NCBI GenBank assembly: GCA_964428355.1
Contig: CAYRYU010000004.1
Span: 3,261-67,260 of the forward strand
Length of the DNA: 64,000 bases
Direction: 5' to 3'
Origin: an uncultured bacterium
Lineage (GTDB): Bacteria; Muiribacteriota; Ozemobacteria; Ozemobacterales; Ozemobacteraceae
In this document: one piece after another, positions 12,105 to 37,747 of the stretch
Layout of the letters: every line of letters starts with the position of its first letter
Numbering within the stretch: position 1 is the stretch's first letter
Notes under the pieces: generated by a model
Seen by the model: the letters and a program-made list of their open reading frames with translations, nothing else
Database searches by the model: none
Told to the model about the DNA's origin: nothing
Made by a program: the position numbers and the translations under genes

Positions 12105-12225
12105 CGAAAAATGCCACAGATCCGCAGAGAACTCAGGGAGAACTCCGGGGTTTCGGAAAAAGGGAAAAGCCGCCTGTCCGTTTCATTGACAGCCTCTGTG
12201 GCTCTGTGTCTCCGTGGCAATCCCA
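12105..12225. repeat. CACAGAG / CTCTGTG inverted-repeat element (copy 2) in the ankyrin-EEP intergenic region
   Basis: ccacagatccgcagagaac (about 12114-12132) and the inverse cctctgtggctctgtgtctccgtggc (about 12193-12218). The reverse complement of the latter matches 7060-7085 at about 22 of 26 positions. Confidence 0.5.
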
Positions 12226-12248
12226 TCAGGAATCCTGCTTCTTCGTTG

Positions 12249-13262
12249 ATGTTTTCCCGGAAACCATGGGCAATCGGACTGCTTCTGGGCATGGTTGCCC
12301 TGTGCTCCGGGGCTTGGGGTGCAAGCCGTTGGATGCCTCCCCCAGGGTTCCGGAATTCATTCGCATTTTTCCAGAACCTGGTGGCCTTTTTCGGTCACCC
12401 CCAGGTTTTTGTCCCCGTTTCCCCGGTCGCATCTCAGCCCGAACCGGTGGCGTTGTTCATCGGTTCCGCGACGGTTCATCCCCCGCTCGAACCTTTTTCA
12501 GGCCCAGCCGCAGAGCCGGGAAAGAACGGTGGGAAGGCCGACCTGAGGGTCCTTTCGCACAACCTGTGGCTCCTGCCCTTTCCCTTTGCGGTGGACATGG
12601 ACGGCCGGCTGGATCGGTTCTGCGGTTTCGCCCGGGATCTTGGACCCGACATCGTTCTCCTCCAGGAAGTCTGGTTCGCTCATCACTTGGAAGCGGTGCG
12701 CCGCGGGTTTCCAGGCTACTGGACGGTATCTTCCGGAGGCCTCGGTTACAACAGGAGCGGCCTTGTGATTCTCACGAAGAAACCCCCAAAAGACGCCCTG
12801 AGTGGGGTTTTCGCCGTGACCGGAAACCACAACTTCGAGGAACTGCTGGCTCGGAAAGGTTTTCTTCGGATCGTCCTGGAATCGGGCGGGGTGAACTGGA
12901 ACATCGCCTGTACTCACCTCTACGCTTCAAAAACAGAAGCCGAGAAGAACGAGAAATTCCGGCAGCTTCGGTCCCTTCAGGGAATCATCGGATCCCTGAC
13001 TCCCCCGGTTCTCATCGGAGGGGACTTCAACATCCGGTTCGAACAGTTTCTCCCGCTGAACGGGGATTTCCTAACGTTGGAATCCTCTCCGCCCCTTCCA
13101 ACGAACCGGAACCTGAATCACCCGGGGAAGATCGATTATCTCGTTGGCAGAGCCGGGAAGGGGAATCCCATTTCCATCGATTCAACGGTTCTTGGCGATC
13201 CCATCTTTTCCGATCACAAGATGATTCTTGCCACGGTGACACTGGAACTGGGTCAGGAATAA
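12249..13262 (+). CDS. Secreted endonuclease/exonuclease/phosphatase (EEP) family protein, sphingomyelinase-like
   Basis: Start is taken at the internal ATG giving the signal peptide MFSRKPWAIGLLLGMVALCSGAWG. EEP motifs are present (LRVLSHNLW, IVLLQEV, GGDFN, SDH). Confidence 0.7.
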   Translation: MFSRKPWAIGLLLGMVALCSGAWGASRWMPPPGFRNSFAFFQNLVAFFGHPQVFVPVSPVASQPEPVALFIGSATVHPPLEPFSGPAAEPGKNGGKADLRVLSHNLWLLPFPFAVDMDGRLDRFCGFARDLGPDIVLLQEVWFAHHLEAVRRGFPGYWTVSSGGLGYNRSGLVILTKKPPKDALSGVFAVTGNHNFEELLARKGFLRIVLESGGVNWNIACTHLYASKTEAEKNEKFRQLRSLQGIIGSLTPPVLIGGDFNIRFEQFLPLNGDFLTLESSPPLPTNRNLNHPGKIDYLVGRAGKGNPISIDSTVLGDPIFSDHKMILATVTLELGQE

Positions 13263-13840
13263 GCTTTCCTGATCATTGCAGCCGCTCCCACCAGGAAAGC
13301 GACTGCGAGGATCCAGAGGAAGTTTTCCCCCAGCCACTCGTCGGCGTAGGGACCGAATTTGTACCCTGCCCAGATCGAGATCGGGCAGGTCAGGATCGTA
13401 CGGGCGAAATCCCAGAAAAAGAACTTCCAGAAGCGGTATCCCATCGTGCCGCTCAGGAAAAATGTCGAGGCGCGGATCCCCGCGAAAAAACCCGCCAGGA
13501 ACACGGCGGTATCACCGTGCTTTTCGAAGAACGCTTTCGTTTTCGACAGCACTTTTTCGGAAAACATTATCCGGAATGGCCAGAGCCGGAGGATCGTCTG
13601 GCCGTAATTTCGTGCAAGGAAAAACAGGCAGATGTCCCCAAGAAGGACCCCGGCCACTCCGGTCGCGATCATTTTCCCAAGCGTACCGTTCCCGAGACTG
13701 ACCAGGTAACCCGCGGTGATGAACGTGGCTTCCTCGGGGACGGGGAGTCCCATTCCGCAAAGGACAAGCACGGTGAAGACCGCAAGGTAGGTACCGTTCT
13801 GGAAGAAAGGAAGAAGTTGGTCAAACCAATCCATACGCAT
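13253..13840 (-). CDS. DedA / SNARE-associated family membrane protein
   Basis: 195 aa, multi-TM, with the DedA signature region (GLPVPEEATFITAGYL ... FLARNYG). Its 3' end overlaps the EEP gene by 10 nt in convergent orientation. Confidence 0.8.
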   Translation of the reverse strand: MRMDWFDQLLPFFQNGTYLAVFTVLVLCGMGLPVPEEATFITAGYLVSLGNGTLGKMIATGVAGVLLGDICLFFLARNYGQTILRLWPFRIMFSEKVLSKTKAFFEKHGDTAVFLAGFFAGIRASTFFLSGTMGYRFWKFFFWDFARTILTCPISIWAGYKFGPYADEWLGENFLWILAVAFLVGAAAMIRKAYS

Positions 13841-14027
13841 CTTTGGAGGTGGAAAATCAACCTCCAGACCAAGGATGGTTCCAAGATATCCCTATCGGGC
13901 CGGTTCCGCAAGCGGAATTTCCAGGTTCCTCTGGGTGAAGGGCAGGGTAACCTTTTCTTTTGCCTTCGTTTCCGTGATAGAATTGCCCTTGGCGGAGGTT
14001 GTTGTGGTTTCATCCAGGGAACGGTTT

Positions 14028-14423
14028 TTGGTCGTGTGGGGCCTCCTTCTGGGGATCGTTCTGTCGTCCTTTCCGCTCGAGGGACAGGTTTCGGATCCAA
14101 ACAGGAAAATCTTCCTAGAAGGGGTAGTAACGAGTTTCCGCCACCTGTGCAAATGGGACCACTATGACGACGGCTCCTTCGAAGGTTACGACCAGCTGGT
14201 GTTCAGGATCACCGCTCCACCGAAGTATCGGGGCAAGGTCCTGAAGGTCTATTACGGTTCCTGGAAGATCCCCCACGGGATCGTCCCCTTGAAAGTCGGG
14301 GTCCTTTGCCGGTTTGCCCTCAAGGAATGGGTCCTGGAACTGAGCGAAATCTATTGGGACGCTCTCGAATTCTTCCGGATCGTTGCCTGGCCTCCGAAAA
14401 CGTACATAAAGACGATCCGCTGA
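14028..14423 (+). CDS. Hypothetical small secreted protein
   Basis: The C-terminal ~130 aa of track ORF 13875-14423 have protein-like composition. A putative TTG/GTG start near 14028 gives a signal-like VVWGLLLGIVLSSFPLEG. The overlapping minus-strand ORFs are Arg-rich junk. Confidence 0.35.
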   Translation: MVVWGLLLGIVLSSFPLEGQVSDPNRKIFLEGVVTSFRHLCKWDHYDDGSFEGYDQLVFRITAPPKYRGKVLKVYYGSWKIPHGIVPLKVGVLCRFALKEWVLELSEIYWDALEFFRIVAWPPKTYIKTIR

Positions 14424-14436
14424 CATCGGGAGAAGC

Positions 14437-14904
14437 ATGGGGAAAGAACGGTCGCCCTCGCGGAAGAGATTTTCCCTGCTTCGTCCCGGGACCGCGGAAC
14501 AGTTCGAACGCTACTTCGACCTTCGCTGGAGGGTTCTCCGGCAACCCTGGAGCCAACCCCGTGGAAGCGAGCGCGACGACCATGAAGAAGGGGCGTTTCA
14601 CCTGATGGCGGTCGATGAGGAGGGAGTCCCCTGGGCCGTAGGACGGCTCCACGTCGAGTCGCAGGGCTGTGGCAGGATCAGATACATGGCCGTAGAGGAA
14701 CGGGGCCGGGGAGCCGGTTTGGGCCGGATGGTCCTGGAAGGCTTGGAAAACGAGGCGCGGAACCGCGGACTGGCCCGGATGATTCTCAACGCACGCGAAT
14801 CGGTTGTGGGCTTCTACCTTCGCGCCGGATATCTCGTGACGGGGGAGGGGCCCCTTCTGTTTGGGGAAATTCGTCATTCAATCATGGAAAAGAGCCTGGT
14901 GTGA
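14437..14904 (+). CDS. GNAT family N-acetyltransferase
   Basis: 155 aa; acetyl-CoA binding motif RGRGAGLGRMVLEGLENEARNRG (Q/RxxGxG/A). Confidence 0.75.
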   Translation: MGKERSPSRKRFSLLRPGTAEQFERYFDLRWRVLRQPWSQPRGSERDDHEEGAFHLMAVDEEGVPWAVGRLHVESQGCGRIRYMAVEERGRGAGLGRMVLEGLENEARNRGLARMILNARESVVGFYLRAGYLVTGEGPLLFGEIRHSIMEKSLV

Positions 14905-15587
14905 GCTGGGAGGAAAGGCGTTCCCGGTTCGCGGTGGGAAAGAAAATCCTGGCGGTCCTTGTCGGGCTGTTGGCGACGCTGGTGTTGCTGGGGGTTTTCC
15001 TGCCCTCCCGCACGAAGAGGTTTTTTCTCCAGGATCTCCAGAGCGAACTTTCCGGAAAAGGCCAGGAAAGGGCGCAAGCCAGGTTCCGGCAACGTCTGGA
15101 AATTCTCAACCTCGATCCCAATGTCCTCCAACTGGAGCTTCTGGTCAGGAAAAAGGAACGCGTCCTGGTGGTGAGCAACGGCGAGACGGTCATCGCATCG
15201 TATCCCGTCGCCCTGGGGTTCAGTCCGGAAGGGCAGAAAGAGACCGCCAACGACGGGCGGACCCCGGAGGGAAGCTATTTCATCTGCTACAAGAAAGAGA
15301 ACAGCCGGTATCACCTTTTCCTTGGAGCGACCTACCCTTCGCCCGACGATGCGTCGCGGGCCCTTTCGAAGGGAATCATCTGCGCGACGGAAGCGGAAGC
15401 GATCCTGGAAGCTGGGATGAAAAGGGCTCGTCCTCCCTGGAACTCCCCGCTCGGAGGCCCTTTCGGGATCCATGGATTCGGCACGGGCGAGGACTGGACG
15501 GAAGGAACGGTTGCCATGTCCAATCCCCACGTCGAAGAGATCTTCTGGAACGTCCCGATGGGAACCCCCTTGACGGTCATCCCATGA
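14901..15587 (+). CDS. L,D-transpeptidase (YkuD) domain-like protein; catalytic Cys position appears to be Thr
   Basis: 228 aa; GTG start overlaps the GNAT stop (GTGA); N-terminal TM/signal. The C-terminal GIHGFGTGEDWTEGTVAMSNPHVEEIF parallels the YkuD motif HG...S.GCIRM.N.DV.EL, with Thr in place of the nucleophile Cys. Confidence 0.55.
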   Translation: MSWEERRSRFAVGKKILAVLVGLLATLVLLGVFLPSRTKRFFLQDLQSELSGKGQERAQARFRQRLEILNLDPNVLQLELLVRKKERVLVVSNGETVIASYPVALGFSPEGQKETANDGRTPEGSYFICYKKENSRYHLFLGATYPSPDDASRALSKGIICATEAEAILEAGMKRARPPWNSPLGGPFGIHGFGTGEDWTEGTVAMSNPHVEEIFWNVPMGTPLTVIP

Positions 15588-15624
15588 GAACCTCTTTCCT
15601 CGCGGATCTCATGGGCAGGGATTG

Positions 15625-17091
15625 TCACTTCTTCGGAAGGGCTTTAATGAGCCGAATGAACTCGACGGGATCGATGATCTTTGCACCACCCTTGGACTTT
15701 TCGGCGGATTCGAAAAGCACGTCCTTGATCTCGTCCGGGGTCAAGTCGGGACGGATCTGCCAGCCCAGGGCCAAAACTCCCGCGGCGTAGGGAATTCCCC
15801 AGCTCAGACCTCCGCGCCCGTTGTGTTGGAAGGAGAAGGTCTTTTCATGATACTGCTCCGCGGTTGTCCGGGGTGAGCATGGCGCGCAGACGTTTTCCGC
15901 GTCGACCCTGCTGGAAATCCTCCCAGGGAACCCGGGAGTGCATTTCGAGGGGCTTTCCGGATCCGAACGGTCGAAGAAACAGGGGCTGATGAATCCGAAT
16001 TTGTCCGAGGTGTCGATCACGAGTATCCCTGCTTTCCTGGCCTTTTCCACGGCTTTGTCCCACTGATCCCCGCCGGTCTTGAAGGGTGAACCGGTTCCGG
16101 AAGGGGAGGTGGAGACCGATACGACGCGGATTCCTTGCCCCGCGGGAAGTCCGGCGTTGATTGCGATGATCCATTCGAGGGCTTTTCCCAGGGGCGTCGC
16201 GTCCCGGTCACCGGATGGGAAGGCGGCGTAGTACAAGACGGCTTCGGGGGCGACGCCGCAGGTGTTTCCGACCAGGATGCTCGTCACCGCCGGACCATGC
16301 ATGCTGGACGTCTCGTTCAGATCCAAGTTCAGATACGAAGCGATCTTCCCGGCGAACTCCGGGTGATCAAGGTGCATCGCCTGGTCGATGATTGCCACTT
16401 TCACACCCTTCCCGGTGAACCCCTCCTGGTGGAGCTTCCGGACCCCCAGGCCTGGATTCTTCCAGTCCTCGATCGTCCTTTCGGGCGACCAGCCCGCGGG
16501 GAGAGCGGCGGACGCGGGCCAGACGGTCTTCTGGTTGAAATCGAGGGTTTCGAGCAGCTCGAGCTTGTCCCGGAAGTCGAACTTGCCCAGGTCGCGGTTC
16601 CGGACGTCGTCGAATTTTCCCGGGGCCCTGTTCGGGTCTTCCACTTTCGCCAGGCCCGGGCCGGGGGTAAGGGGAGGAGTCCCTTCCCGTTTCAGAACGT
16701 AGTATCCGGGGTCCAGGCCGTCCTCGGAGATATCCCCGCTTAACCACGGCAGGAAGAGGACCTCCTGTCCCCCCAGGTTTTCGATGAAGAATGGGTAGTG
16801 GAGATTTCGCTTTTCATCGATGATCTTTCCCTCCCGCCAGACGAGGGTGCAGAAGGCCGGGTCTTTCTGCAGGCCCATTGTCGTGGACCCGTTTTCCTCG
16901 AAGGCGAATCCCTTCAGGAACAATTCCCCTCCAAACTGCGTGTCTCCGGGTTTGAACTCCGTCGGGTCATCAACAAAATCGATTGTTTCCCACCGCCCAA
17001 CCGGAACCTTCAAGTTTGTGCCCCCAGCCGAGCAGCAGATCGAGATCATAGAGAAAAGGACGGCAAAGGACAGAACGGCTTTCTTTTTCAT
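15625..17091 (-). CDS. Secreted subtilisin-like serine peptidase (S8 family)
   Basis: Start at the ATG at 17091 (MKKKAVLSFAVLFSMISICCSAGG) with GGAGG 6 nt upstream. Catalytic motifs: VAIIDQAMHLDHPEF (Asp), HGPAVTSIL (His), GGLSWGIPYAAG (Ser). Confidence 0.8.
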   Translation of the reverse strand: MKKKAVLSFAVLFSMISICCSAGGTNLKVPVGRWETIDFVDDPTEFKPGDTQFGGELFLKGFAFEENGSTTMGLQKDPAFCTLVWREGKIIDEKRNLHYPFFIENLGGQEVLFLPWLSGDISEDGLDPGYYVLKREGTPPLTPGPGLAKVEDPNRAPGKFDDVRNRDLGKFDFRDKLELLETLDFNQKTVWPASAALPAGWSPERTIEDWKNPGLGVRKLHQEGFTGKGVKVAIIDQAMHLDHPEFAGKIASYLNLDLNETSSMHGPAVTSILVGNTCGVAPEAVLYYAAFPSGDRDATPLGKALEWIIAINAGLPAGQGIRVVSVSTSPSGTGSPFKTGGDQWDKAVEKARKAGILVIDTSDKFGFISPCFFDRSDPESPSKCTPGFPGRISSRVDAENVCAPCSPRTTAEQYHEKTFSFQHNGRGGLSWGIPYAAGVLALGWQIRPDLTPDEIKDVLFESAEKSKGGAKIIDPVEFIRLIKALPKK

Positions 17092-18939: not shown

Positions 18940-19580
18940 TTGCACAGTGTACCATTCCCCTTCCCTCAAGGCAATCAAAGAACCAATCCAAGGTCGGGGG
19001 CCGAAGGGAAAAAATCCCCCGGGGGTTACAATCCGGAAGATGCCTTCTGGAAAAGGTCGTCCCAGAACTCCTCTTTGCGGGCTCCGACGATCTTCATGCG
19101 TATCTGCCCGTTCCGGTCGATGAGGTAGGTCTGGGGGAAGTTCTCGCACTTTCCGCATCGGACGCACTTTCCCGAATCTACGGTGATCCGGAACAGACTG
19201 AACCGGTTGAATGAAAGAAAAACTGGAAGGAACAAGGCGAACACGAACAGGGCTACGCCCCGAAAACCCTCAGGGCAATGAAGAAAAGGAAAGCAAGCAG
19301 CCTGGACTTTTTCATCGATGCCCAGTCGGGGGGGATTTCGGTGCAATGGTCCGAACAACAGTTTCCGAGGACTTTTCGATGATGCCCTCCGGCTGGCCTT
19401 CCTCACAATCCCTCACCCCTTCATCAACGATGGCGGAACGGAATACCCGAATTTACTTTTCCCGGGGTTTGGGATAGATTTGTTCCGGCCGGGTCCTTGG
19501 CCATTCCTGGGGTTCCGGGTGCAGGAATCGTTTCTGGTGAAAGCCCCGGCCGGAAAAAAGATCTTGGGAGGTGATTCGCT

Positions 19581-21356
19581 GTGTCTTCAAGGAGTGCCCG
19601 CCCCATTGTTCCCCGGACCGGGCCTATCGTCCACGGAGGGCGATGTGCCCGATTTTCGCCCGGATGGCGAAGTTTTTTCGGGCCTTTCGTCCACGGAGGG
19701 CGATGTGCCCGATTTTCGCCCGGATGGCGAAGTTTTTTCGGGCCTTTCGTCCTGCTCCTCTTTTCGATCGGATTTCAAGGCATCCCTTCTTTCGCAGGGG
19801 GAATTGACGCCACGCTCGGTGCGCTGGCCCTCCGAAGGTCCGTGATCGCCGCTCCTCCGCCCTCTCGGGAAGTCCTCGCCCCGGAAGGTGCTTTCATTAC
19901 TGTTTTCAACGATACGGTCGCGGAGTGGGTTTCCGCGCCGCTCGATTCTTCGCTCCTGAAGGAGATCCGAAGGACACTCGCCCCACACCTGCGGATCGAG
20001 CTCAACCCCCGGGGATTTGCGCCTGCCGCCACCCGGACAGATGGAGACGAAGCCGATTCGACCAACTACGATGCCATCTGGGTCAGGGACAACGTCTGGG
20101 TGTACATGGCCCTGGTGCGTGACCCCGAACGGCGCGCGGATGCCCGGAAACTGCTGCTCGCGCTCTGGGATTACTATGCGACCCCTGCGCAGATGAGCCG
20201 CTTCAGGAACGTCTGTCTCAACCCTTCCCTTTCTCTCGACCAGATGGCGATGCCCCACATCCGCTTCGACGGCAAGTCCCCGGTCCTCGGAGACGTGATG
20301 GTCGACGGGAAACCTGAAACCTGGAACCACCGGCAGATCGACGCCCACGGCCTGTTCTTCGTTGCCCTCGGGTCGGCCGCGATGGAAGGATTGATAACCC
20401 GTGACGACCTGACAGGCGATCGTTTCGGAGTTGTTTGCATGTATCCCTGGTTCCTGGAGAGGATCTCTTTCGATACGTATGAGGATGCGGGAGCCTGGGA
20501 AGAGCTTCCCCGGCGGAATACCAGCAGCATCGCGCTTGCGACGCGATCCCTTCAGGTCTGGCGGGATCTGCTCGCGGCCAAGACCGGCCCCGGGAAAGCA
20601 TTCGGAGACCATTTCCGGCATCTTCTCGAGCAGTGTGGGACTGACGACATACATGGCTGGTCGCCAGGCTTCATCGGAGAACTGATCTCCCGCGGTTTGA
20701 ACCGCGTGAAGCGACAACTGGAGCTGGGGGGGGAATCTCCCGACTACGCTCCCGGGGACATCCATTTCAGGCAGGCGGATGCCGCGCTTCTCGTCCTCTT
20801 GCAGCCGTCTCCGTTGGAGGGGTTGAGCGAGTTGGAACAACGGACCGTCCTCAGGATCGTCAAGACGCTCGAACGCCCGGCTGGAATCCTGAGATACGAT
20901 CTTGACAGCTACCAATCGGGGAACTTCTGGATCAAACCCCCTGCCCCGGCGGAGCCCGACAAACCCACCTTGACGGGGGATACTTCCTCAGACGCGGCTT
21001 TCAGATGGCGCCTTTCACAGCTTCTCCCGAATACGGAAGCGCAGTGGTTTTTCGACAGCCTCTCCTGCCTCGCCCGCTTGTACATGGCGGAACACACATC
21101 CAACGCGGGCCTTCGGAAACAGGATCTCCATTTTGCCGCCATCCATCTCAAGAGAGCGTTGGGGCAGATCACGGGCCCCGCTCTTGCCGCCGATGGACAG
21201 CCTGTCAGGAGCTGGCAGGCTCCGGAAAGCATCAATACCGTGGTTCTGGGGGGGCGGAGGATCCTTGTTCCCTCCCCGATCACGCCCCTGAATTGGGCCA
21301 AAGCCGCATTGGATCTTGCCCTGCGTGAATACTCCCGGGTCGCCCTGGGAAAATAA
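19581..21356 (+). CDS. Glycoside hydrolase family 15-like protein (glucoamylase-related (alpha/alpha)6 barrel); start uncertain
   Basis: Long ORF with a GH15-like core (YDAIWVRDNVWVYMAL, QIDAHGLFF). The track start is a GTG at 19581, so the 60-bp tandem repeats fall in its N-terminus. The real start may instead be downstream of the repeat (about 19760-19870). Confidence 0.65.
   Translation: MSSRSARPIVPRTGPIVHGGRCARFSPGWRSFFGPFVHGGRCARFSPGWRSFFGPFVLLLFSIGFQGIPSFAGGIDATLGALALRRSVIAAPPPSREVLAPEGAFITVFNDTVAEWVSAPLDSSLLKEIRRTLAPHLRIELNPRGFAPAATRTDGDEADSTNYDAIWVRDNVWVYMALVRDPERRADARKLLLALWDYYATPAQMSRFRNVCLNPSLSLDQMAMPHIRFDGKSPVLGDVMVDGKPETWNHRQIDAHGLFFVALGSAAMEGLITRDDLTGDRFGVVCMYPWFLERISFDTYEDAGAWEELPRRNTSSIALATRSLQVWRDLLAAKTGPGKAFGDHFRHLLEQCGTDDIHGWSPGFIGELISRGLNRVKRQLELGGESPDYAPGDIHFRQADAALLVLLQPSPLEGLSELEQRTVLRIVKTLERPAGILRYDLDSYQSGNFWIKPPAPAEPDKPTLTGDTSSDAAFRWRLSQLLPNTEAQWFFDSLSCLARLYMAEHTSNAGLRKQDLHFAAIHLKRALGQITGPALAADGQPVRSWQAPESINTVVLGGRRILVPSPITPLNWAKAALDLALREYSRVALGK
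19621..19752. repeat. 60-bp tandem direct repeat (2.2 copies)
   Basis: The unit ggcctttcgtccacggagggcgatgtgcccgattttcgcccggatggcgaagttttttcg is repeated at 19621-19680 (1 mismatch) and 19681-19740, with a partial copy to 19752. All three + frames are open across it. It is homologous to the repeat at 45676-45795. Confidence 0.9.
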
Positions 21357-21395: not shown

Positions 21396-22118
21396 TCAGG
21401 GTTGGAGGGAGGAGAGGTTCCAGTGAGGATTTCGCCGGTCGGCAGCTATGAAGCGGCTTCCCAGGGTTGCCGCCATGGCAAGGGGTTGAGGGGCCTGGCC
21501 GTTGTCCTGGTCCTCGAGGACTTCGAAAGAGACCCAGAGCAGCGGAACCTCGGGACTGGCTTCATGGGCATATGCCTTGAAACGGGCGTTCAGGATGCCG
21601 TGGAACTCCGTCCGGCCTTTCGGGGTTGAACGGACCAGGGTACGGGTTTTGGGGTCGAAGGAGTAGCGGATCAGCTCCAGGGGCGGAACCATCTGGTCCT
21701 TTGGGCAATCCATGCCGAACGCGAAAAACTCGATTCCGTCGAGAAGAAGGCGGATGGGGGAACTGTTGCCGGTTCCCGCGCCCCTGGGGCCGAAGGAGAT
21801 GGGAAAACGTCTCGAGACTTCCCGAAAAGCCGCTTGATCGGAAGCAGAAAGAAAGGGAACCGCCCGGGAGAAATCCCGGCGAAGGGAAGCCAGGGCCAAC
21901 CGTGCCGACTGGAGGTTCTGGAGGTCTCCGCTCCCCTGCCGGAACTGCCAGGTCAGAACCCCCATCCCTCTTCCAATTGCCAAAAGAAGAAAAGTCCCGA
22001 TGAAGAAGGCGACGAGCGCTTCGATGAGGGTGAACCCCACCCTCGATGGCACCACACGCCCGCGGAGAAACCCGCAAAACCATGTCTCTCCGCCGGGGCA
22101 CCGGCGTCCTTCCTCCAT
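21396..22118 (-). CDS. Type II secretion / type IV pilus minor pseudopilin (prepilin-type N-terminus)
   Basis: Prepilin processing motif GFTLIEALVAFFIGTFLLLAI (G|F..IE with Glu at +5). The proposed ATG at 22118 overlaps the upstream gene's stop as TGATG, suggesting translational coupling. Confidence 0.6.
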   Translation of the reverse strand: MEEGRRCPGGETWFCGFLRGRVVPSRVGFTLIEALVAFFIGTFLLLAIGRGMGVLTWQFRQGSGDLQNLQSARLALASLRRDFSRAVPFLSASDQAAFREVSRRFPISFGPRGAGTGNSSPIRLLLDGIEFFAFGMDCPKDQMVPPLELIRYSFDPKTRTLVRSTPKGRTEFHGILNARFKAYAHEASPEVPLLWVSFEVLEDQDNGQAPQPLAMAATLGSRFIAADRRNPHWNLSSLQP

Positions 22119-22714
22119 CAATACTCCTCCCGGTCGTCCGTCAAGAGTGTAGACATTGTAAGGCTTCTCATCCGGTCGGGTTTTCCGCCCACCGAATCGA
22201 TATGTTCGGGTGCCCGGCCCTCGTTCCATGACACGTCAACGGTGACACGGTACAAGAATACTCTTCCGTCGGGGTTGGGAACCGGATTCACCGCGATGGT
22301 CCGGTAAAAAAAAGCGCTGTCATACTGCTTTGGATAGGCGAGGGGCTGGGTCCCCGAAGTGATGGAATAGAGCCCTGTAGTGGCCTCCGGAAGCGGAACG
22401 GGTTTGTTGGTGGCCGGATCGAGAAGGGAACCGGTCTGGTTCAGCATGGCTTTCAAGCCCTGGGCGTCGAGTTGCGTTGCCCGTGCCCAATCGATCGTTT
22501 CCTGCGCGATTTCGAGGGCCCTGAGGTGATGGATCGCCCTTTTTGTGCTCTCGCGGGTTTTTCCCATCGAGAAAAAGAGAATTCCCGCCAGGGAAATTAC
22601 TATACCGACGGCGACGACGATTTCGATGAAGGAAAATCCTTCGTGGGAGCGGCTTCGAAACTGACAGGGCTTGAAGAAAATCACTGGCCCTCTCCTTCCC
22701 GCCAGGCCCGCCAT
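22118..22714 (-). CDS. Minor pseudopilin (prepilin-type N-terminus)
   Basis: 198 aa with GFSFIEIVVAVGIVISLAGILF (G|F..IE) near the N-terminus; small globular C-terminal domain. Confidence 0.6.
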   Translation of the reverse strand: MAGLAGRRGPVIFFKPCQFRSRSHEGFSFIEIVVAVGIVISLAGILFFSMGKTRESTKRAIHHLRALEIAQETIDWARATQLDAQGLKAMLNQTGSLLDPATNKPVPLPEATTGLYSITSGTQPLAYPKQYDSAFFYRTIAVNPVPNPDGRVFLYRVTVDVSWNEGRAPEHIDSVGGKPDRMRSLTMSTLLTDDREEY

Positions 22715-23124
22715 CTCTTCTGTTCTTCGGCAAGAAGGTCATTCACGGCCAGTTCCGTCACAGCGCCCTGGACGATCTGTTTCAGGCCCTTCTGGACATC
22801 GGGCATGGGGGCGGGTTGGAAAGAGCCTTCCGGGAGGCCCTCATCGGGAGATCGGCCCGACGCCTGAGCCGGGCCGTCCACCCCTGATTCCGTTTCCGAA
22901 GACGACCCCTGTCCCAGGCGAAATCCTGGACTGGCCGGTGGGGCAGCCGACCGAGCGGGCATCTCAAAGCTGCTCGAGGAAGCCACTTCCCTCCGGGGCT
23001 GTTCAGGAACAGGTGCTTCGCCCCCGCAGCCCAACAGCCAACCCCCAACGAGAAGGAGTGAAAGGAAAAGCGCGGTTCCGGAAAACCCCCGCTGAAGCTT
23101 CGCCCTCCTCGCCCTTTCAGTCAT
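22681..23124 (-). CDS. Hypothetical lipoprotein in the pseudopilin operon
   Basis: 147 aa; signal peptide with lipobox LLLVGGWLLGCGG; Ser/Pro/Ala-rich middle region. Confidence 0.5.
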   Translation of the reverse strand: MTERARRAKLQRGFSGTALFLSLLLVGGWLLGCGGEAPVPEQPRREVASSSSFEMPARSAAPPASPGFRLGQGSSSETESGVDGPAQASGRSPDEGLPEGSFQPAPMPDVQKGLKQIVQGAVTELAVNDLLAEEQKRWRAWREGEGQ

Positions 23125-25279
23125 CGGCGGTCACCGAGAAGAACGTGGGAATAGGCCCGACGCTGAACCGAAAGGGATCCAGGGGAAGGAACAGCTCCGG
23201 GTCATGGGTTATCCGTAACGTCGAAGCGCCCGTTTTTCCCCTTCCGAGGTTGAGATCGTCCACCACGAGATTCCCCAAGATCTGAACCTCCGCGGTCTGG
23301 AAATAGATGGTTCCCTGCTGCTGGGGTTGGATGCCCGAGTTGTCGGGCGGGGAGAGCGTGGTGGCGACGAGCGAGGCCTCGATCCTTGCAGGCTTCCCCT
23401 GGCTGCCAAGGAGGAAACTTCCGGAAAGAAGGTAGATCTTGAGCCGGTCCCTTTGGGGGTCGGCTTTGGTCAGCGAGTCGATTTCGCATTGCCCCCGGAA
23501 AAGAATGATCGTTCCTTTTCCGACGAAGTTGCGGATAGATTTCAGGTCGAGGGGGGCTCCGTCGATACCGTGGATAACACTGATTCCGTCCAGAAAAAGA
23601 TGGTCCTGGCCTGAACGGGAACGGACCCTGTCGGCGAGGAACTCCCCGACAGTGGCATAGAAGTGGGATACCGTCCTGAGATTGGGGTCCAGGACCGGGA
23701 AAATGTCGCCTCCGTTCCGCGTTCCACCCTTTTGCTGAGGCTGTGGCCGGGGCTTGGACTCGTTGAAAAAGAAAGTGTTGATGCTGATTTCATCGACCGC
23801 GCGGCTCATGAGGGTTTCTTCGATTCCATGGATCTTTCCGACGGGGCGGTTTGAAAGAGAGATGGGATCGGTGGGGCCGGCGAAGTTCAGGGGAATCTCG
23901 GGAAATCTCATTGTTTTCGGGCCCTGCCTCATCGGAAGGAGAAGAGGGAACTCGTCAAGGAATGCGACCTTGAAGAACCTGAGGAAAACGTTTCCTTCGA
24001 CGAATACAGGGATGTCGCGGTTTTCCCCGAAAAGTAAAGGCATCCTGCCTCCCCGGACCCGGAAGGGGTTGAACTGATCGTAATAGATGAAGAAGTTCTG
24101 GATTCCGGAAAAGTGGGGGAAATCGGCAATGAAAGGGGTTAGACGATCGCTGTTTCCCTGTCTGATGTGGGAGTAGTCGGTGTAGCCGTAATGATACTTC
24201 CAGGCTTTCTTGCACAAATCGGCGATGGTCTTGAACAGCTGGGAACCGGCGGGTTTCCCTCCTGCCTGGTTGAAATCCTGCATTATCTCGAAGGGCACTG
24301 TGTTCGGATCCGAGGAGTAGGGGCGGGCTTTGTCGACGATTTCCTTGATGTAGAAATCGGTCAGTGTCCGGACCTGACAGAAATCCGAGAAGGGATAGCG
24401 GTCAGCAACGACCTTGAAATCGACGGCGGGGGTGTGGGCGGCGAAGAGCTGCCCGGAGCTGACGCCCCCTGCCCCTGCGCTTTTGGGGGCGAAGCCGCAG
24501 GCGTTTGGGCTCATGTTGCTGATCAGAGCTTTGTCCCCCAGGAAATCCAGGTCCAGGAAGATGGGTGGCGGACCCGAGCCCTTTCCCCCGTCAGGGAACT
24601 CCGGAACGGGCGGATAGAAGCGGCTTCCGAGATACACCCGTGAATGGGCGTTGGGAAGCCGGACTCCCTCGATGATGAGGCGGCGGTCGATGTCGTTGAG
24701 TGTGGGGCAGAAACTTTTCAGGTAGAGGGCGTACTTGTCGAAGAAGAGATCCCGAAGGTCGACTCCCCGTATCTCGCGCCGTTCCCTGACGATGAGAGGA
24801 TGGCCGGTTCCGTGGCCCCCGATGGACTTGCATTCCAACTCCAGGAAGCCCAGCAGGGAAAACGGGGTGGTGGAAGTCTTCACGGGGAAAACGAACCGCG
24901 CCAGGCCGACGAACTGCCCCTTGGAACTCAGGGTTGCCTTTGCCAGGGAGTTGGTCTGCGGGAGGCGTGGGGGGGAAAAATCCACGGCGAAGGAGAGGGG
25001 GGCCGCAGACCCGCCTCCGCCCGCGACAACGCCGAACAGTTTCCGACAGTCATTGCCGATTGGCGTTTTGGGGTCATTGACCTCGGCCTTGATTACTGCC
25101 AGCATTTCCTGGATTCCGGACTGGCCCAGTTGAACGATGCGGCTCTGGTCGATGGTCTTCGAAAGCTGGTCCGCTTCGCCGAGGTGGAACTGGAAGAGGG
25201 CGGCAAAAAAGATCGCGCCGCATGCCAGAAACGCAAGGAGGATGTAGAGTAGGGATCCTCCCCGCCACGGGGATTTCAT
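23117..25279 (-). CDS. Large membrane-anchored hypothetical protein, GspK/PilX-like N-terminus
   Basis: 720 aa. The N-terminus MKSPWRGGSLLYILLAFLACGAIFFAALF resembles the RG-x-ALL hydrophobic leader of GspK-type minor pseudopilins; the rest has no recognisable motif. Lies in the same operon as the pseudopilins. Confidence 0.55.
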   Translation of the reverse strand: MKSPWRGGSLLYILLAFLACGAIFFAALFQFHLGEADQLSKTIDQSRIVQLGQSGIQEMLAVIKAEVNDPKTPIGNDCRKLFGVVAGGGGSAAPLSFAVDFSPPRLPQTNSLAKATLSSKGQFVGLARFVFPVKTSTTPFSLLGFLELECKSIGGHGTGHPLIVRERREIRGVDLRDLFFDKYALYLKSFCPTLNDIDRRLIIEGVRLPNAHSRVYLGSRFYPPVPEFPDGGKGSGPPPIFLDLDFLGDKALISNMSPNACGFAPKSAGAGGVSSGQLFAAHTPAVDFKVVADRYPFSDFCQVRTLTDFYIKEIVDKARPYSSDPNTVPFEIMQDFNQAGGKPAGSQLFKTIADLCKKAWKYHYGYTDYSHIRQGNSDRLTPFIADFPHFSGIQNFFIYYDQFNPFRVRGGRMPLLFGENRDIPVFVEGNVFLRFFKVAFLDEFPLLLPMRQGPKTMRFPEIPLNFAGPTDPISLSNRPVGKIHGIEETLMSRAVDEISINTFFFNESKPRPQPQQKGGTRNGGDIFPVLDPNLRTVSHFYATVGEFLADRVRSRSGQDHLFLDGISVIHGIDGAPLDLKSIRNFVGKGTIILFRGQCEIDSLTKADPQRDRLKIYLLSGSFLLGSQGKPARIEASLVATTLSPPDNSGIQPQQQGTIYFQTAEVQILGNLVVDDLNLGRGKTGASTLRITHDPELFLPLDPFRFSVGPIPTFFSVTADD

Positions 25280-26400
25280 CAGTTCCCGCCCAGGTTAAGA
25301 CCCGGCTTGGGTTTGGGGGCACTCTCGGAGGGGTCGGAAACCACGCCGATGGTTCCCGAGGCGGTCGAAACGACTCCGATCACTCCCGATTCGGAGGCTG
25401 GGCCACTTTTCCCGGTTCCGGAGGTGGGATCGGAGGAACTCGGGGTTGTGGTCTGCGTGTTATCATCCGTCGCGGTCGGCTCGGGAGTGGGGGAAGGGGG
25501 CGTGGGCGGCACCTGGGAGGTCTCCCCCGCGCCGTCGCTGTTGTCGAATGCCTGGGAAACGGCTCCCGAAGTGTTCTCGGACCCGCCTCCCGACTGGGTT
25601 CCCCCCATGCCGCCAAGTTGTGAAGCATATCCGGAGTCCGCCGCCGAAGCTTGCTGTGCCTGTTGGATCAGCTCATTCCCCGCCGCGATCAATCTATTGG
25701 CGGCGGCTTTGAGCTTTTCCGCGACCTGGGTCAGCTGGGCTTTAATGTCGGCGGGTTTCATGTATTGAACGAGATTGTCATCGATTCCTCCGGCGAAACT
25801 GGCGAACTCGTCGGCCTTGTTTTGCAGCTCCTTGCCTTTCTCGATTGTCTGGTTTCCGGTATTTTCCATGGTGGTCTGCCAGGAGGATTTCCCCTCAGCG
25901 GTTCCCCCCATTCCCCCAGAGACACCTTTCGAGGCACTTTGGGCCGCTTTGTAGGACGTCTGGACGCTGACCCAGCTTGCCTCATTCAGGAGGGCATCCC
26001 CCAGGTTTCCTTTCTTCTCACGAATGAAGTTGTTGATCTTTTCCGCCTCTTGCACGATTTCCGACTTTTTGGGGGAAACTTCCTCCTCAGCCCTGGTTTT
26101 CAAATATTCCTGGCTCGGGACCAAGGGGTAACCGTTCGCCAACTTCTCAGCATTTGAAAGGGACAAAATCTGGCTCATGATTTCTCCCTTTTTCTTAGCG
26201 ACCATGGATTCGAATTTTCCCCCTTCAGTCTCATCGATCGAAACTGTGGGCAAACCTCTCACCGCCCCATTGGCGTCACGGGCCATTCCTATTGCGTCAT
26301 CGATCGCATCAGCGCGGGTGGCAGGGTTGACCGCAATGATTCCGGCCACGACAAGGGCGAAAACAAAAATCGCGGAGCAGTTCCCCACGTTTCTCTTCAT
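25279..26400 (-). CDS. Secreted hypothetical protein with Ser/Thr/Gly/Pro-rich C-terminus
   Basis: ATG at 26400 with AGGAGGG 8 nt upstream; signal peptide MKRNVGNCSAIFVFALVVAGIIAV. Coiled-coil-like middle; C-terminal low complexity PPTPPSPTPEPTATDDNTQTTTPSSS. Confidence 0.55.
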   Translation of the reverse strand: MKRNVGNCSAIFVFALVVAGIIAVNPATRADAIDDAIGMARDANGAVRGLPTVSIDETEGGKFESMVAKKKGEIMSQILSLSNAEKLANGYPLVPSQEYLKTRAEEEVSPKKSEIVQEAEKINNFIREKKGNLGDALLNEASWVSVQTSYKAAQSASKGVSGGMGGTAEGKSSWQTTMENTGNQTIEKGKELQNKADEFASFAGGIDDNLVQYMKPADIKAQLTQVAEKLKAAANRLIAAGNELIQQAQQASAADSGYASQLGGMGGTQSGGGSENTSGAVSQAFDNSDGAGETSQVPPTPPSPTPEPTATDDNTQTTTPSSSDPTSGTGKSGPASESGVIGVVSTASGTIGVVSDPSESAPKPKPGLNLGGN

Positions 26401-26433
26401 TTTGAATTCCCTCCTGAAAAATCCAGTCAAAAT

Positions 26434-27069
26434 CTACTTTGCAGTTTCGGGTTGCCGGTTACAGGAATCCTCTTTTCCTTTCTTCCCTGACGCGGGGGGC
26501 AGAGGATCGACTCCGTACATGAACCATTGGCCTTCGATCCGGCAGCCGTAACCGGCGGCTTTGGCGATGACCTGAAGAACGGCCCGGCATGGAACCCCGA
26601 AAAAACGGCACGAGACCGGGGTCTTGTCGCCCCGTTCAGGCTCGATGCGAAGGCTTGCCCTTTTCGCGATGAAGTGAAGGACGGCATCGAGGCTGACTTC
26701 CCTGAAATCCATCGTCACCCGTTCCGATTCCGATGCGCCCGGAAGGGAGGGGAATGGAATCGCCCCACTTTCCCACGGCACATCCCTGAAAACCCATATC
26801 CCGTCGATTTCTTCCAGGAGCGACCCGGTGGCGGTCGCGACCAACCGGAATCCGTCAGGACCCGGCTTTGGGGAAAGACCGATGGGGATTGCGCCGCGGA
26901 TTTTCTTGCCGATCGCGACGAAAGAGAACCCGGAAGCTTGGGAAATCCTTCCGAGGAGCTCGATTCCGGGCGGAATCGGGTTGACCTCCTCCCGTTCTTC
27001 AGCCCGGGCAAGACGAGGGAGGGTTCCCAGGACAAGGACGAGCAGGAAAATGAGGCTTCTGATTCTCAT
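26434..27069 (-). CDS. Secreted protein with secretin/TonB N-terminal (STN)-like domain
   Basis: 211 aa; signal peptide MRIRSLIFLLVLVLGTLPRLARA. The C-terminal VTMDFREVSLDAVLHFIAKRASLRIEPE ... fits the short STN-domain pattern (xDFxxxxLxxVLxxIAxxxGLxI). Confidence 0.5.
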   Translation of the reverse strand: MRIRSLIFLLVLVLGTLPRLARAEEREEVNPIPPGIELLGRISQASGFSFVAIGKKIRGAIPIGLSPKPGPDGFRLVATATGSLLEEIDGIWVFRDVPWESGAIPFPSLPGASESERVTMDFREVSLDAVLHFIAKRASLRIEPERGDKTPVSCRFFGVPCRAVLQVIAKAAGYGCRIEGQWFMYGVDPLPPASGKKGKEDSCNRQPETAK

Positions 27070-35671: not shown

Positions 35672-37747
35672 TCAGCGGAGGTCGACGACGAGGCATGTGA
35701 AATCGTCGTGAAGGTTGTCCGGTCCGGCGAATCCACGGACTTCCTTCAGGATGGCCTCCGCTGTCGCCTGTGGTGGAAGGGATGATGTCTCCCTGAAAAG
35801 TTTCCGGAGACGGTCCTCACCGAAGAAATCCCCTTGTTTGTTTCGCGCTTCCAGGACCCCGTCGGAAACGAGGAGAAGGCGGTCGTTGGTTGAGAAGCCC
35901 GTTGTCCGGTTCGTCAGTGGAACATCGTTACGCAAACCAAGGGGTGCGGATTCCGAAGGATGGGAGGCGATCTCCCCCATTTCTCCACCAAGTACAAGGA
36001 CGGCGGGATGACCAGCGTTCATGATGGTGATGGTTCCCGCTCCCAGGTCGATCCGGCAGTAGACCATCGTCACGAAAACCGACAGGCGTTCGAGGCGGGG
36101 TCCGATGTCCTTCTGAAGTTCTGCAATGATCGCTTCGACCCGGGGAAGGACCCCGTGCCCGCTTCCGACGAGCCGGGTAACGATCCTCAGGACGGCCTCC
36201 TTGGTCGATGCCCCGATCAGGGCCGCCGAGATTCCCTTCCCCATCACGTCTCCGATCACGATATCGATGATGTGATCGTTCAGGATGATGAAATCCGTGA
36301 AATCCCCGTCGACCAGGAGGGAGGGGCATGAACAGAGGCCGAACTCAGCCTTTTGGAGATTCCGGGGAGGCTCGCTTGCCAGCAACGTCTGCTGGATCTG
36401 GACGGCGGTATTCTCCTCCTGGAGACGCACCTGCCTCAACTCCTCCTCGATCCGTTTCCGGGGGGTTATCACCATCGCGATTATCATCCCGAACTGGACC
36501 TCGCCTGCGGGGTTCCGAACCGGGGCGAAACGCATCTCGTACCAGTCTTCCTTGAAAAACACTTCCATTGTGCTGTCCCTGCCTTTCAGGACTTCGCGGA
36601 TTCCCTGGTGGATCCCGGGAAAACGGTCTTCCGGGAAGAAATCCACGACAGGCTTGCCTTCGAGGGACTTCCGGAATCCCTTCAGGTTGCGAAGGTTCTC
36701 CCCGGCCGCCATAACGAATCGGATGTCTTGGTCGAAGAGAAGCACCATTCCGCTCGTGAAGTTCCGCATCAATGCACGGTATTTGGAATCCGTCGTCTGG
36801 AACTTCCTTTCCGCCCGGAAACGAAGCAGGGAGTTGGCGAACAGTTCGGCGGTAAGTCGGAGAAGGCTCAGGTCTTCATCGGCCCAGGCCCGGTCTGCCT
36901 GGCATCCATCCACTCCGAGATATCCGATGGTCCTTCCCTTGACTTTCAGCGGAAGACCCAGATGGGTGTGAATCCCCCGGCTCCGAAGGTATTCGATCTC
37001 CTGCTGGGACATCGGGGGGGAAACCAGGCACGAAGGCGAGTTGCACCTGCTCATGATCCCGGATGCCTTCGTGTTTTGGATTACGGAAAGGCTGATTCCC
37101 GAGATCCTGCCCTTGCGGCTGAAAATTCCCGAAAGGCTCCATTCGAAGACCTTTTCGACGGTCTTCTCGTCTTCTGAAAGCAGGAAAAGAAAGGCGTGGT
37201 CGGCCTGGATGTACCGGCCGATATTTTCCAGGCTGGAGGTAATCGTCGCCTCGATGTTCTCCCCGTCGATCATCAGGAATCCCGCGGAAAGCTTGCAGAC
37301 AAGAGCTTCGATCTCGAACCTCTTCTGGAAGATTGAAAGAAGCGGGTGTTCCAGGAGCGGATCCCGGCAGACAGCAAGGAATACATCCCCGTCTCCGAAG
37401 GGAACAGGAGAGAATTGTACCTGGAGGGGTTTGGCGGTTCCCTCGGAGGTGACGAAGGTGAAAATGTTCTTCCGCGAGGACGGCGGGATTCCCGTTTGGA
37501 AGAAGTGTTTCGCGGAATCGCTTTCCGCCGATCTCAGAAGGTCTGCCCAGTGGGCTCCGATGAGGTTGTGGGGTGTACGCCTGAGGGTCTTCTCGAAAAT
37601 GGGATTCACCAGCGTGATGATCCCGTTGAACCGGACTGCGAAGGCAGGTTGGTCGAGGGAATCGAGGAAATCCTGGAACTCCGGGGTGGACGTGGCCTCG
37701 GGATCGTGGCCCCAGTTTGGCCCAATTGCTTTCAGGGGGAATTCCAT
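35672..37747 (-). CDS. Cytoplasmic PAS-GAF-PAS PP2C-type phosphatase (RsbU / SpoIIE family)
   Basis: Sensory PAS/GAF-like regions (e.g. GRTIGYLGVDGCQ), then the C-terminal PP2C domain with VDGDFTDF, VIGDVMGKGISAAL, ITIMNAGHPAVL and LLLVSDGVLEA. The start at MEFPLK (37747) or at the track M1 (37786) is uncertain. Confidence 0.8.
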   Translation of the reverse strand: MEFPLKAIGPNWGHDPEATSTPEFQDFLDSLDQPAFAVRFNGIITLVNPIFEKTLRRTPHNLIGAHWADLLRSAESDSAKHFFQTGIPPSSRKNIFTFVTSEGTAKPLQVQFSPVPFGDGDVFLAVCRDPLLEHPLLSIFQKRFEIEALVCKLSAGFLMIDGENIEATITSSLENIGRYIQADHAFLFLLSEDEKTVEKVFEWSLSGIFSRKGRISGISLSVIQNTKASGIMSRCNSPSCLVSPPMSQQEIEYLRSRGIHTHLGLPLKVKGRTIGYLGVDGCQADRAWADEDLSLLRLTAELFANSLLRFRAERKFQTTDSKYRALMRNFTSGMVLLFDQDIRFVMAAGENLRNLKGFRKSLEGKPVVDFFPEDRFPGIHQGIREVLKGRDSTMEVFFKEDWYEMRFAPVRNPAGEVQFGMIIAMVITPRKRIEEELRQVRLQEENTAVQIQQTLLASEPPRNLQKAEFGLCSCPSLLVDGDFTDFIILNDHIIDIVIGDVMGKGISAALIGASTKEAVLRIVTRLVGSGHGVLPRVEAIIAELQKDIGPRLERLSVFVTMVYCRIDLGAGTITIMNAGHPAVLVLGGEMGEIASHPSESAPLGLRNDVPLTNRTTGFSTNDRLLLVSDGVLEARNKQGDFFGEDRLRKLFRETSSLPPQATAEAILKEVRGFAGPDNLHDDFTCLVVDLR

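Follow-up and report, generated by a model that had tools for sequence, protein, structure and literature searches.

Two related tandem arrays lie in unrelated genes

The 64,000-nucleotide (nt) stretch of DNA analysed here, referred to as the window, corresponds to positions 3,261 to 67,260 of contig CAYRYU010000004.1 (GenBank assembly GCA_964428355.1) from an uncultured bacterium of the Ozemobacteraceae and contains two tandem arrays with a 60-nt period, each located within a protein-coding gene. Array A (19619-19752, forward strand) is found in a gene for a GH15-like secreted glycoside hydrolase (19581-21356, forward strand). Array B (45676-45795, sense on the reverse strand) is carried by a gene for a 2208-amino-acid (aa) protein in which the order transmembrane (TM) region, HAMP and class III cyclase occurs twice (42195-48821, reverse strand). 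The Pfam assignments, GH15-like on the forward and HAMP-cyclase on the reverse strand, bear out a preliminary description of this DNA, which had placed the repeat in two unrelated genes on opposite strands. Together with the 64 kb of the source genome, our analysis covered 14.8 kb of DNA from a second genome.

Both arrays were delimited using Tandem Repeats Finder (TRF), the sequence itself and its translation. Array A comprises 2.2 units of 60 nt, two full ones from 19621 and 19681 and 12 nt of a third from 19741; TRF reported a period of 60 and an internal match of 98%, and the only difference between the copies is an A/T exchange (19626 versus 19686), in agreement with the 2.2 copies and one mismatch previously given for 19621-19752. 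Array B contains 1.9-2 units. The 60-nt period proposed for 45676-45795 was recovered by TRF, but the perfect repeat is confined to 45676-45788 (period 60, 1.9 copies, 100%) and the last 7 nt, past 45788, differ between the two copies. When searched with a profile of the unit, the copies in array A matched with nhmmer E values of 8e-20 and 2e-19 and those in array B with 2e-14 and 3e-14.

Aligned to the reverse complement of the array B unit, the array A unit is identical at 44 of 60 positions (73%) without gaps, as had been estimated. We compared this value with two null distributions, for both of which both strands and all 60 rotations were allowed. About 20,000 random 60-mers from the window gave a mean of 24.9 identities (sd 1.7, maximum 34) and 20,000 shuffles of the B unit a mean of 25.2 (sd 1.5, maximum 35), placing the observed similarity at a z of about 11-12 above both. 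An alignment no better than that of random GC-rich 60-mers would, according to the preliminary description, have spoken against a relation of the two units; the 44 identities, set against null maxima of 34-35, show otherwise. Beyond the array edges the similarity stops abruptly, and alignment of the 300-nt flanks on each side of A and B was no better than that of shuffled sequences. The unit profile detected no copy other than A and B in the 64-kb window. A match at 36602-36639 (nhmmer E=0.12) was discarded as a chance hit inside a PAS-GAF-SpoIIE gene, where it reads as ordinary coding sequence. A dimeric make-up of the unit from two related shorter repeats is not claimed either, since the 27-nt sub-period reported by TRF for both arrays gave self-shift scores no better than shuffles (P=0.35 and 0.53). 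The window shows no enrichment of CGYCC..GGA..GGRCG, the motif of the sub-hairpin (11 matches versus 21.6 expected).

Array A is predicted to extend the N-terminus of a secreted hydrolase

The GH15-like protein has 212 homologs, the closest annotated ones being from Riflebacteria/Ozemobacteraceae. Its deposited version, P0001, is 504 aa long with GTG 19842 as its start codon and is devoid of the signal peptide found in the homologs. In the alignment, the homologs begin with a short charged segment, which is followed by a hydrophobic signal-peptide core and a conserved GALALRR motif, and both the signal peptide and GALALRR align upstream of GTG 19842 in the window. The sole in-frame ATG, GTG or TTG codon upstream of 19842 is GTG 19581, and it is preceded by the Shine-Dalgarno-like sequence GGGAGGTG (19567-19574, forward strand), a putative ribosome-binding site with a GGAGG core ending 8 nt before the codon. 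Because the features of the homologs lie upstream of 19842, only one start codon is available in frame and GGGAGGTG stands at the right spacing, we infer that the gene starts at GTG 19581 and that the deposited start lies too far downstream. It seems that the repeat misled the start-codon call.

In this gene frame, array A reads GPIVHGGRCARFSPGWRSFF / GPFVHGGRCARFSPGWRSFF / GPFV. The peptide of the preliminary description, starting with GLSSTEGDVPDF, was rejected as a product of the gene, as it stems from another frame that is not used. Its translation GLSSTEGDVPDFRPDGEVFS is correct for one frame of array A, and the array is indeed free of stop codons in all six frames, but the gene does not use the frame in question. 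The segment encoded by array A is absent from all 14 aligned homologs. After subtraction of exactly 40 aa, the N-terminus of the GH15-like protein has 39 residues before GALALRR, compared with 39 in P0002 and 38 in P0003. Since removal of 40 aa restores the length of the orthologs and the homologs have no such segment, array A is, as judged from these alignments, an in-frame insertion of two units (40 aa) in the predicted n-region of the signal peptide that is missing from every homolog examined.

Two spurious long open reading frames (ORFs) also run through array A, because the array is stop-free in 6/6 frames: one antisense (19587-20915, reverse strand, 442 aa) and one sense (19318-19845, forward strand, 175 aa), neither with a Pfam match. 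Of ten long ORFs in a row on the two sides of the GH15-like gene (12206-15790 and 21396-27069), only one had a Pfam match at E<=0.001, which is what a phylum with little sampling would lead one to expect. Near the 3' end of one hypothetical ORF (25279-26430, reverse strand) lies an imperfect 30-nt tandem repeat (25320-25389, 2.3 copies, 70%), the sequence of which is unrelated to the 60-nt unit.

Array B opens the linker of a double cyclase

The public call P0121 is identical to the 2208-aa cyclase. Among 5.8 billion proteins, the only homolog at E<=1e-50 was P0122 (2134 aa, 29% identity), which has the same double architecture, and the duplicated-cyclase design is thus rare. Array B encodes about residues 1010-1049, directly after the first cyclase domain, where a Pro/Ser/Gly-rich linker of ~150 aa begins. 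In the cyclase frame it reads (E)LTSREGGVHGARQEGEAS PGLTSREGGVHGARQEGEAS. In-frame coding by array B within the giant cyclase, as originally described, therefore holds, with the ORF reading ELTSREGGVHGARQEGEAS PGLTSREGGVHGARQEGEAS. In the BLASTP alignment of the cyclase with P0122, conservation is lost past ...FPFIPLE, just before array B, and the locus encoding P0122 (L106) contains no copy of the 60-nt repeat, so that array B is lineage-specific. The P0122 linker has a tandem repeat of its own (L106 8772-8840; 30 nt, 2.3 copies, Pro-rich coding) that is unrelated to the 60-nt unit, and linkers of the double-cyclase family seem to accumulate repeats independently.

A third array occurs in a probably related genome

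A profile built from the peptides that arrays A and B encode in one reading frame, designated frame y, was used to search 1.84 billion representative proteins. This search yielded P0123 (E=6e-7), in which PVVHGGRRARNRPDGEAIFG is present twice; the three remaining matches were unrelated repeat proteins. The corresponding DNA, array C, is located at 4315-4441 of locus L100 (Joint Genome Institute (JGI) metagenome 3300036987), in sense orientation within the P0123 ORF, and consists of 2.1 units of 60 nt with 100% internal identity. Array C matches the DNA profile of the unit with an E value of about 1e-17, and its unit is 87% identical to that of A and 80% to that of B, compared with 73% between A and B. 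When P0123 was compared with the window, matches were found at the arrays only, showing that the site of array C is not orthologous to those of A and B. L100 and L106 come from one metagenome, have a GC content of 0.566 and 0.569, respectively, and show a tetranucleotide correlation of 0.93. In tetranucleotide similarity to the window, the four known Riflebacteria loci are directly followed by L100, with 92 unrelated genomes further down, and the signature of L100 itself is nearest to those of known Ozemobacteraceae loci. Judging from composition and from the co-occurrence of the two loci in one sample, array C probably belongs to a genome related to the source. The loci of A, B and C are each known from one assembly, and P0001, P0121 and P0123 each stand alone in their protein cluster. 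A blastn search against plasmids and phages gave no match to the repeat. The intergenic region 5281-5723 of L095, from a related Riflebacteria metagenome-assembled genome, contains a 196-nt repeat (1.9 copies, 94%) in CT-rich microsatellites of 15-27 nt that is unrelated to the 60-nt unit.

Comparison of the three arrays revealed that their nucleotide sequence is conserved and their peptide is not, the peptide being a by-product. This follows from the different frames used by the hosts. The GH15-like reading of A and the cyclase reading of B are in registers one base apart, so that the original idea of a homologous frame in use in both genes is not supported. The clearest evidence comes from array C, which differs from A by two compensating 1-nt indels and switches frame in mid-unit, with the first half-unit of its peptide corresponding to the gene frame of A and the second half to the other frame of A.

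Each unit is predicted to form two hairpins

Folding predicted two hairpins per unit, CGTCC-ACGGA-GGGCG and TCGCC-CGGAT-GGCGA. In array A, hairpin 1 occupies 19625-19645 and 19685-19705, and hairpin 2, TTTCGCC-CGGAT-GGCGAAG followed by TTTTTT, occupies 19654-19672 and 19714-19732 (all forward strand). Hairpin 2 with its U6 tract was also picked up by a terminator scan and resembles an intrinsic terminator. In array B, hairpin 1 lies at 45707-45727 and 45767-45787, and hairpin 2, CTCGCC-AGGAG-GGCGAG without a U-run, at 45680-45698 and 45740-45758 (all reverse strand). Both hairpins occur in all units, and over four distinct units 93% of the cells are paired, compared with 37-71% when the partners are slid. 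Two hairpin pairs have changed on both sides with pairing kept, and a third such pair is found in a long hairpin formed between neighbouring units; at pair 35-51, for example, A has T-A and B has C-G. Arrays A (z = -3.4) and C (z = -3.8) fold better than 200 of 200 shuffles. Open frames number six of six in A and five of six in both B and C; for A this exceeds shuffled sequences at P=0.02, which is suggestive only. The junction between units, CGGGCC, is kept in A, B and C, and the tandem state is therefore older than the divergence of the three arrays.

A dispersed family of DNA repeats is the favoured explanation

Taken together, we consider it likely, with a probability of about 0.65, that A, B and C belong to a small, lineage-restricted family of dispersed 60-nt DNA repeats in Ozemobacteraceae-like genomes (candidate phylum Riflebacteria) that behaves as an interspersed minisatellite. 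Identity within arrays is 98-100%, that between arrays 73-87%, and homology is confined to the arrays; such an excess of within-array over between-array identity is the usual signature of concerted evolution of tandem arrays. A minisatellite that is dispersed, recombinogenic or mobile would be in keeping with the third array and its non-orthologous site. A mobile or recombinogenic minisatellite entering genes as an in-frame 20-aa module had been suggested in the preliminary description; DNA homology, sharp edges, whole 20-aa units and, with array C, a further non-orthologous site support it, but the shared frame does not hold.

In such a family, arrays would be able to survive inside genes because the unit equals 20 codons and is nearly free of stops, and they would sit where extra residues are tolerated: A in a signal-peptide n-region, which is positively charged and would gain 40 Arg-rich residues, B at the start of a presumably disordered linker and C in an uncharacterised protein. 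Hairpin-assisted slippage or unequal exchange may homogenise the copies within an array. New loci could be seeded either by non-homologous copy-and-insert events (template switching, break repair) or by a hairpin-recognising enzyme. Since A is closer to C than to B and the three sites are not orthologous, repeated seeding is favoured over a single old local duplication, and the low apparent copy number together with the absence of transposon hallmarks disfavours a classical mobile element. The data do not require a host function, and any effect would most likely be neutral or mildly modulatory.

Several points weigh against the explanation of A, B and C as an interspersed minisatellite. One is the size of the family, as three arrays in two genomes, a small sample, are all that is known of it. 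The frame-y profile search returned no further protein from the source genome, which disfavours a high-copy element, and no copy of the repeat was found in ~100 kb around the orthologs of the GH15-like gene in six or seven related Riflebacteria genomes. Pattern CGTCCANGGAGGGCGNNGTGC, searched over 185,579 species genomes that do not include the source genome, gave 92 loci, all of them chance matches, as none fitted the full unit by nhmmer. A pattern with 20 specified bases produced two chance matches in JGI metagenome contigs, a weak result given that array C conforms to this pattern and yet its contig is not in the set, and two pattern scans of viral contigs gave chance matches at most. That A and B nevertheless lie 26 kb apart, despite the low apparent copy number, is unexplained. 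Moreover, the count of ~2 copies per array may be a lower bound set by short-read assembly.

Further reservations apply to the structure and the placement of the arrays. Covariation in the hairpins is weak, the observed score being reached by 84 of 500 shuffles, and a permutation test of A versus B on the hairpins was likewise weak (P about 0.03-0.05); array B does not fold better than shuffles (z=-1.35). All three arrays are sense-oriented in their host ORFs, an outcome with a chance probability of 0.25 that is not significant, and the finding that all three lie inside ORFs is not significant either at a coding density of about 90%. Finally, array A would be translated in the GH15-like gene as GPIVHGGRCARFSPGWRSFF-GPFVHGGRCARFSPGWRSFF, a prediction based on the start codon, the ribosome-binding site and the signal peptides of homologs.

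Alternative explanations

[quoted passage not shown] According to this model, the arrays are ~120-nt palindromic entities, two units folded as one long imperfect hairpin, that have evolved to be stop-free, which lets them persist within ORFs in the manner of RPEs, and are cut and pasted or copied by an enzyme acting in trans, for example a hairpin-recognising HUH/Y1 transposase. This would account for three non-orthologous sites in two genomes, for the greater similarity of A to C from the other genome (87%) than to B from its own (73%), and for sharply bounded arrays that all have ~2 units. Folding of the arrays as a long hairpin (z of -3.4 for A and -3.8 for C), the depletion of stop codons in A and the documented precedent of in-frame RPE insertions (PMC10969869) point in the same direction, but a long hairpin arises automatically once a palindromic sub-hairpin stands in tandem. 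Besides, the array ends are direct, not inverted, repeats of one segment of the unit, and neither A nor B nor C has a recognisable duplication of its target site. In 24 of the window's 41 long ORFs, those surrounding the two arrays, Pfam detected neither a transposase nor an integrase nor a reverse transcriptase. The low apparent copy number and the absence of matches in phages, plasmids and viral contigs are also at odds with such an element.

A more specific and more doubtful idea is that Riflebacteria harbour an ORF-compatible mobile element of a new kind. Such an element, free of stops and ~120 nt long, with two direct 60-nt units folded as one long hairpin, would insert in sense orientation into transcribed genes and have neither terminal inverted repeats nor target duplications. 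Its mobility would depend on an enzyme from elsewhere in the genome that acts on single-strand DNA and recognises hairpins. Being readable in at least two frames, the element would give rise to different 40-aa peptides and so represent a tandem counterpart of the Rickettsia palindromic elements.

We regard it as improbable that the hairpins were selected as a cis-acting RNA or DNA regulator, such as a transcription attenuator or a translation brake just past the start codon of the GH15-like gene. Each unit of array A does contain a 7-bp hairpin with U6 that was found in the terminator scan, the first beginning 74 nt past the proposed start codon; A, B and C have identical hairpin cores, and three pairs have changed on both sides with pairing kept. 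However, this covariation is not significant, the U-run is missing in B, and C has only UAUUUU. A terminator would do damage at the positions of B and C, which are hundreds to thousands of nt into their ORFs, and the GH15-like homologs have no such leader. Rfam gave no match in the whole window at the gathering score and none at E<=1 around A or B.

We consider very improbable that the unit is a peptide-level module, a 20-aa linker or repeat that passes from protein to protein and is under selection for its amino-acid sequence. Such a module could explain why A and B both add whole 20-aa units, why their frame-y peptides have 12 of 20 residues in common and why P0123 could be found through the frame-y peptide, and 8 of the 16 nucleotide differences between A and B fall on third positions of frame y. 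This third-position excess is not significant, however (binomial P about 0.13), and frame y is not the frame of the cyclase, which is sound given an uninterrupted ORF of 2208 aa with homology on both sides. The translated peptides also differ in charge, A being Arg-rich, B acidic and Gly-rich and C mixed. With different frames in A and B and a switch of frame within the unit of C, the earlier suggestion of a peptide linker exchanged between genes can be abandoned.

Equally hard to credit is an artefact or coincidence, in the form of local duplications that are alike by chance or of chimeric or collapsed repeats in the assemblies: all sequences do come from short-read metagenome assemblies and longer perfect arrays can be collapsed by de Bruijn assemblers to about the ~2 units (113-134 nt) that all three arrays have, but the similarity between A and B is 11-12 sd above the null, arrays that are 13-27% apart cannot represent one contaminating oligonucleotide, all three host ORFs are open, removal of exactly 120 nt from A restores the length of the orthologs, and array C stems from an independent project and assembly. 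Two further candidates were rejected. The 16 mismatches between A and B are not adenine-specific (T, A and C in A; G, A and C in B) and no reverse transcriptase domain occurs in the 24 scanned ORFs, excluding a diversity-generating retroelement. A clustered regularly interspaced short palindromic repeats (CRISPR) array is excluded by repetition of the whole 60-nt period without a unique spacer.

Significance and comparison with known systems

The finding is modest and descriptive. If the family were confirmed genome-wide, it would give Riflebacteria, an uncultured phylum, their first described interspersed minisatellite, and provide a case in which one DNA repeat is translated in different frames in different proteins, providing a cheap source of disordered or signal-peptide sequence. 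The arrays are candidate variable-number tandem repeat (VNTR) markers for strain-resolved metagenomics of this lineage. Our analysis also flags a probably mis-called start codon in the GH15-like gene and serves as a warning that arrays of this kind may collapse in short-read assemblies.

The closest working likeness to A, B and C is provided by the mycobacterial interspersed repetitive units (MIRUs). MIRUs are direct tandem units of 40-100 bp at scattered loci, with one orientation relative to transcription and translation-compatible lengths (Supply et al. 1997/2000, via PMC5056196), and their units are near-identical within a locus and different between loci. They are found mainly between the genes of operons, with small ORFs that reach across the stop and start codons on either side, and are described as having no obvious palindromes (PMC5056196). 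The 60-nt family resembles them in its period of 60, a length suited to translation, its direct arrays (2.2, 1.9 and 2.1 copies), the near-identity of units within a locus against divergence between loci, and the presence of homologous arrays in three unrelated genes of two genomes. Unlike MIRUs, A, B and C all lie inside ORFs and have two hairpins per unit, the likeness being one of arrangement. Polymorphism in copy number is what defines the use of MIRUs as VNTRs.

Two other systems share the compatibility with a reading frame. VNTR4155 in leuA of M. tuberculosis has a unit of 57 bp (19 aa), is commonly present in two copies, sits in a dispensable part of the enzyme with the frame kept and is treated as a single locus (PMC2704214). 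Similarly, the 60-nt unit is a multiple of three (20 aa) and leaves the host ORFs uninterrupted, and its sites in an n-region and a linker may be dispensable as well. In contrast to VNTR4155, it occurs in at least three unrelated genes of two genomes and in different frames. Rickettsia palindromic elements are single palindromes of ~150 bp with a high copy number (44 insertions in R. conorii) that encode a conserved peptide and are found in frame in housekeeping genes (PMC10969869). Like RPEs and intragenic MITEs such as enterobacterial repetitive intergenic consensus (ERIC) and BOX sequences, the 60-nt units are short, predicted to be structured, nearly free of stops and in frame in unrelated genes without destroying them (PMC10969869). 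They differ from RPEs in that they are tandem direct units without terminal inverted repeats, with a variable frame and an apparently low copy number.

REP sequences and bacterial interspersed mosaic elements (BIMEs) are extragenic, usually arranged as inverted pairs, present in tens to hundreds of copies, marked by a conserved 5' tetranucleotide and mobilised by REP-associated tyrosine transposases (RAYTs). The 60-nt family has in common with them short, GC-rich, imperfect hairpins of 20-30 nt that are clustered, but the hairpins of A, B and C are in direct orientation and intragenic. By the defining features of MIRUs, leuA-type VNTRs and RPEs, the 60-nt family falls outside all three.

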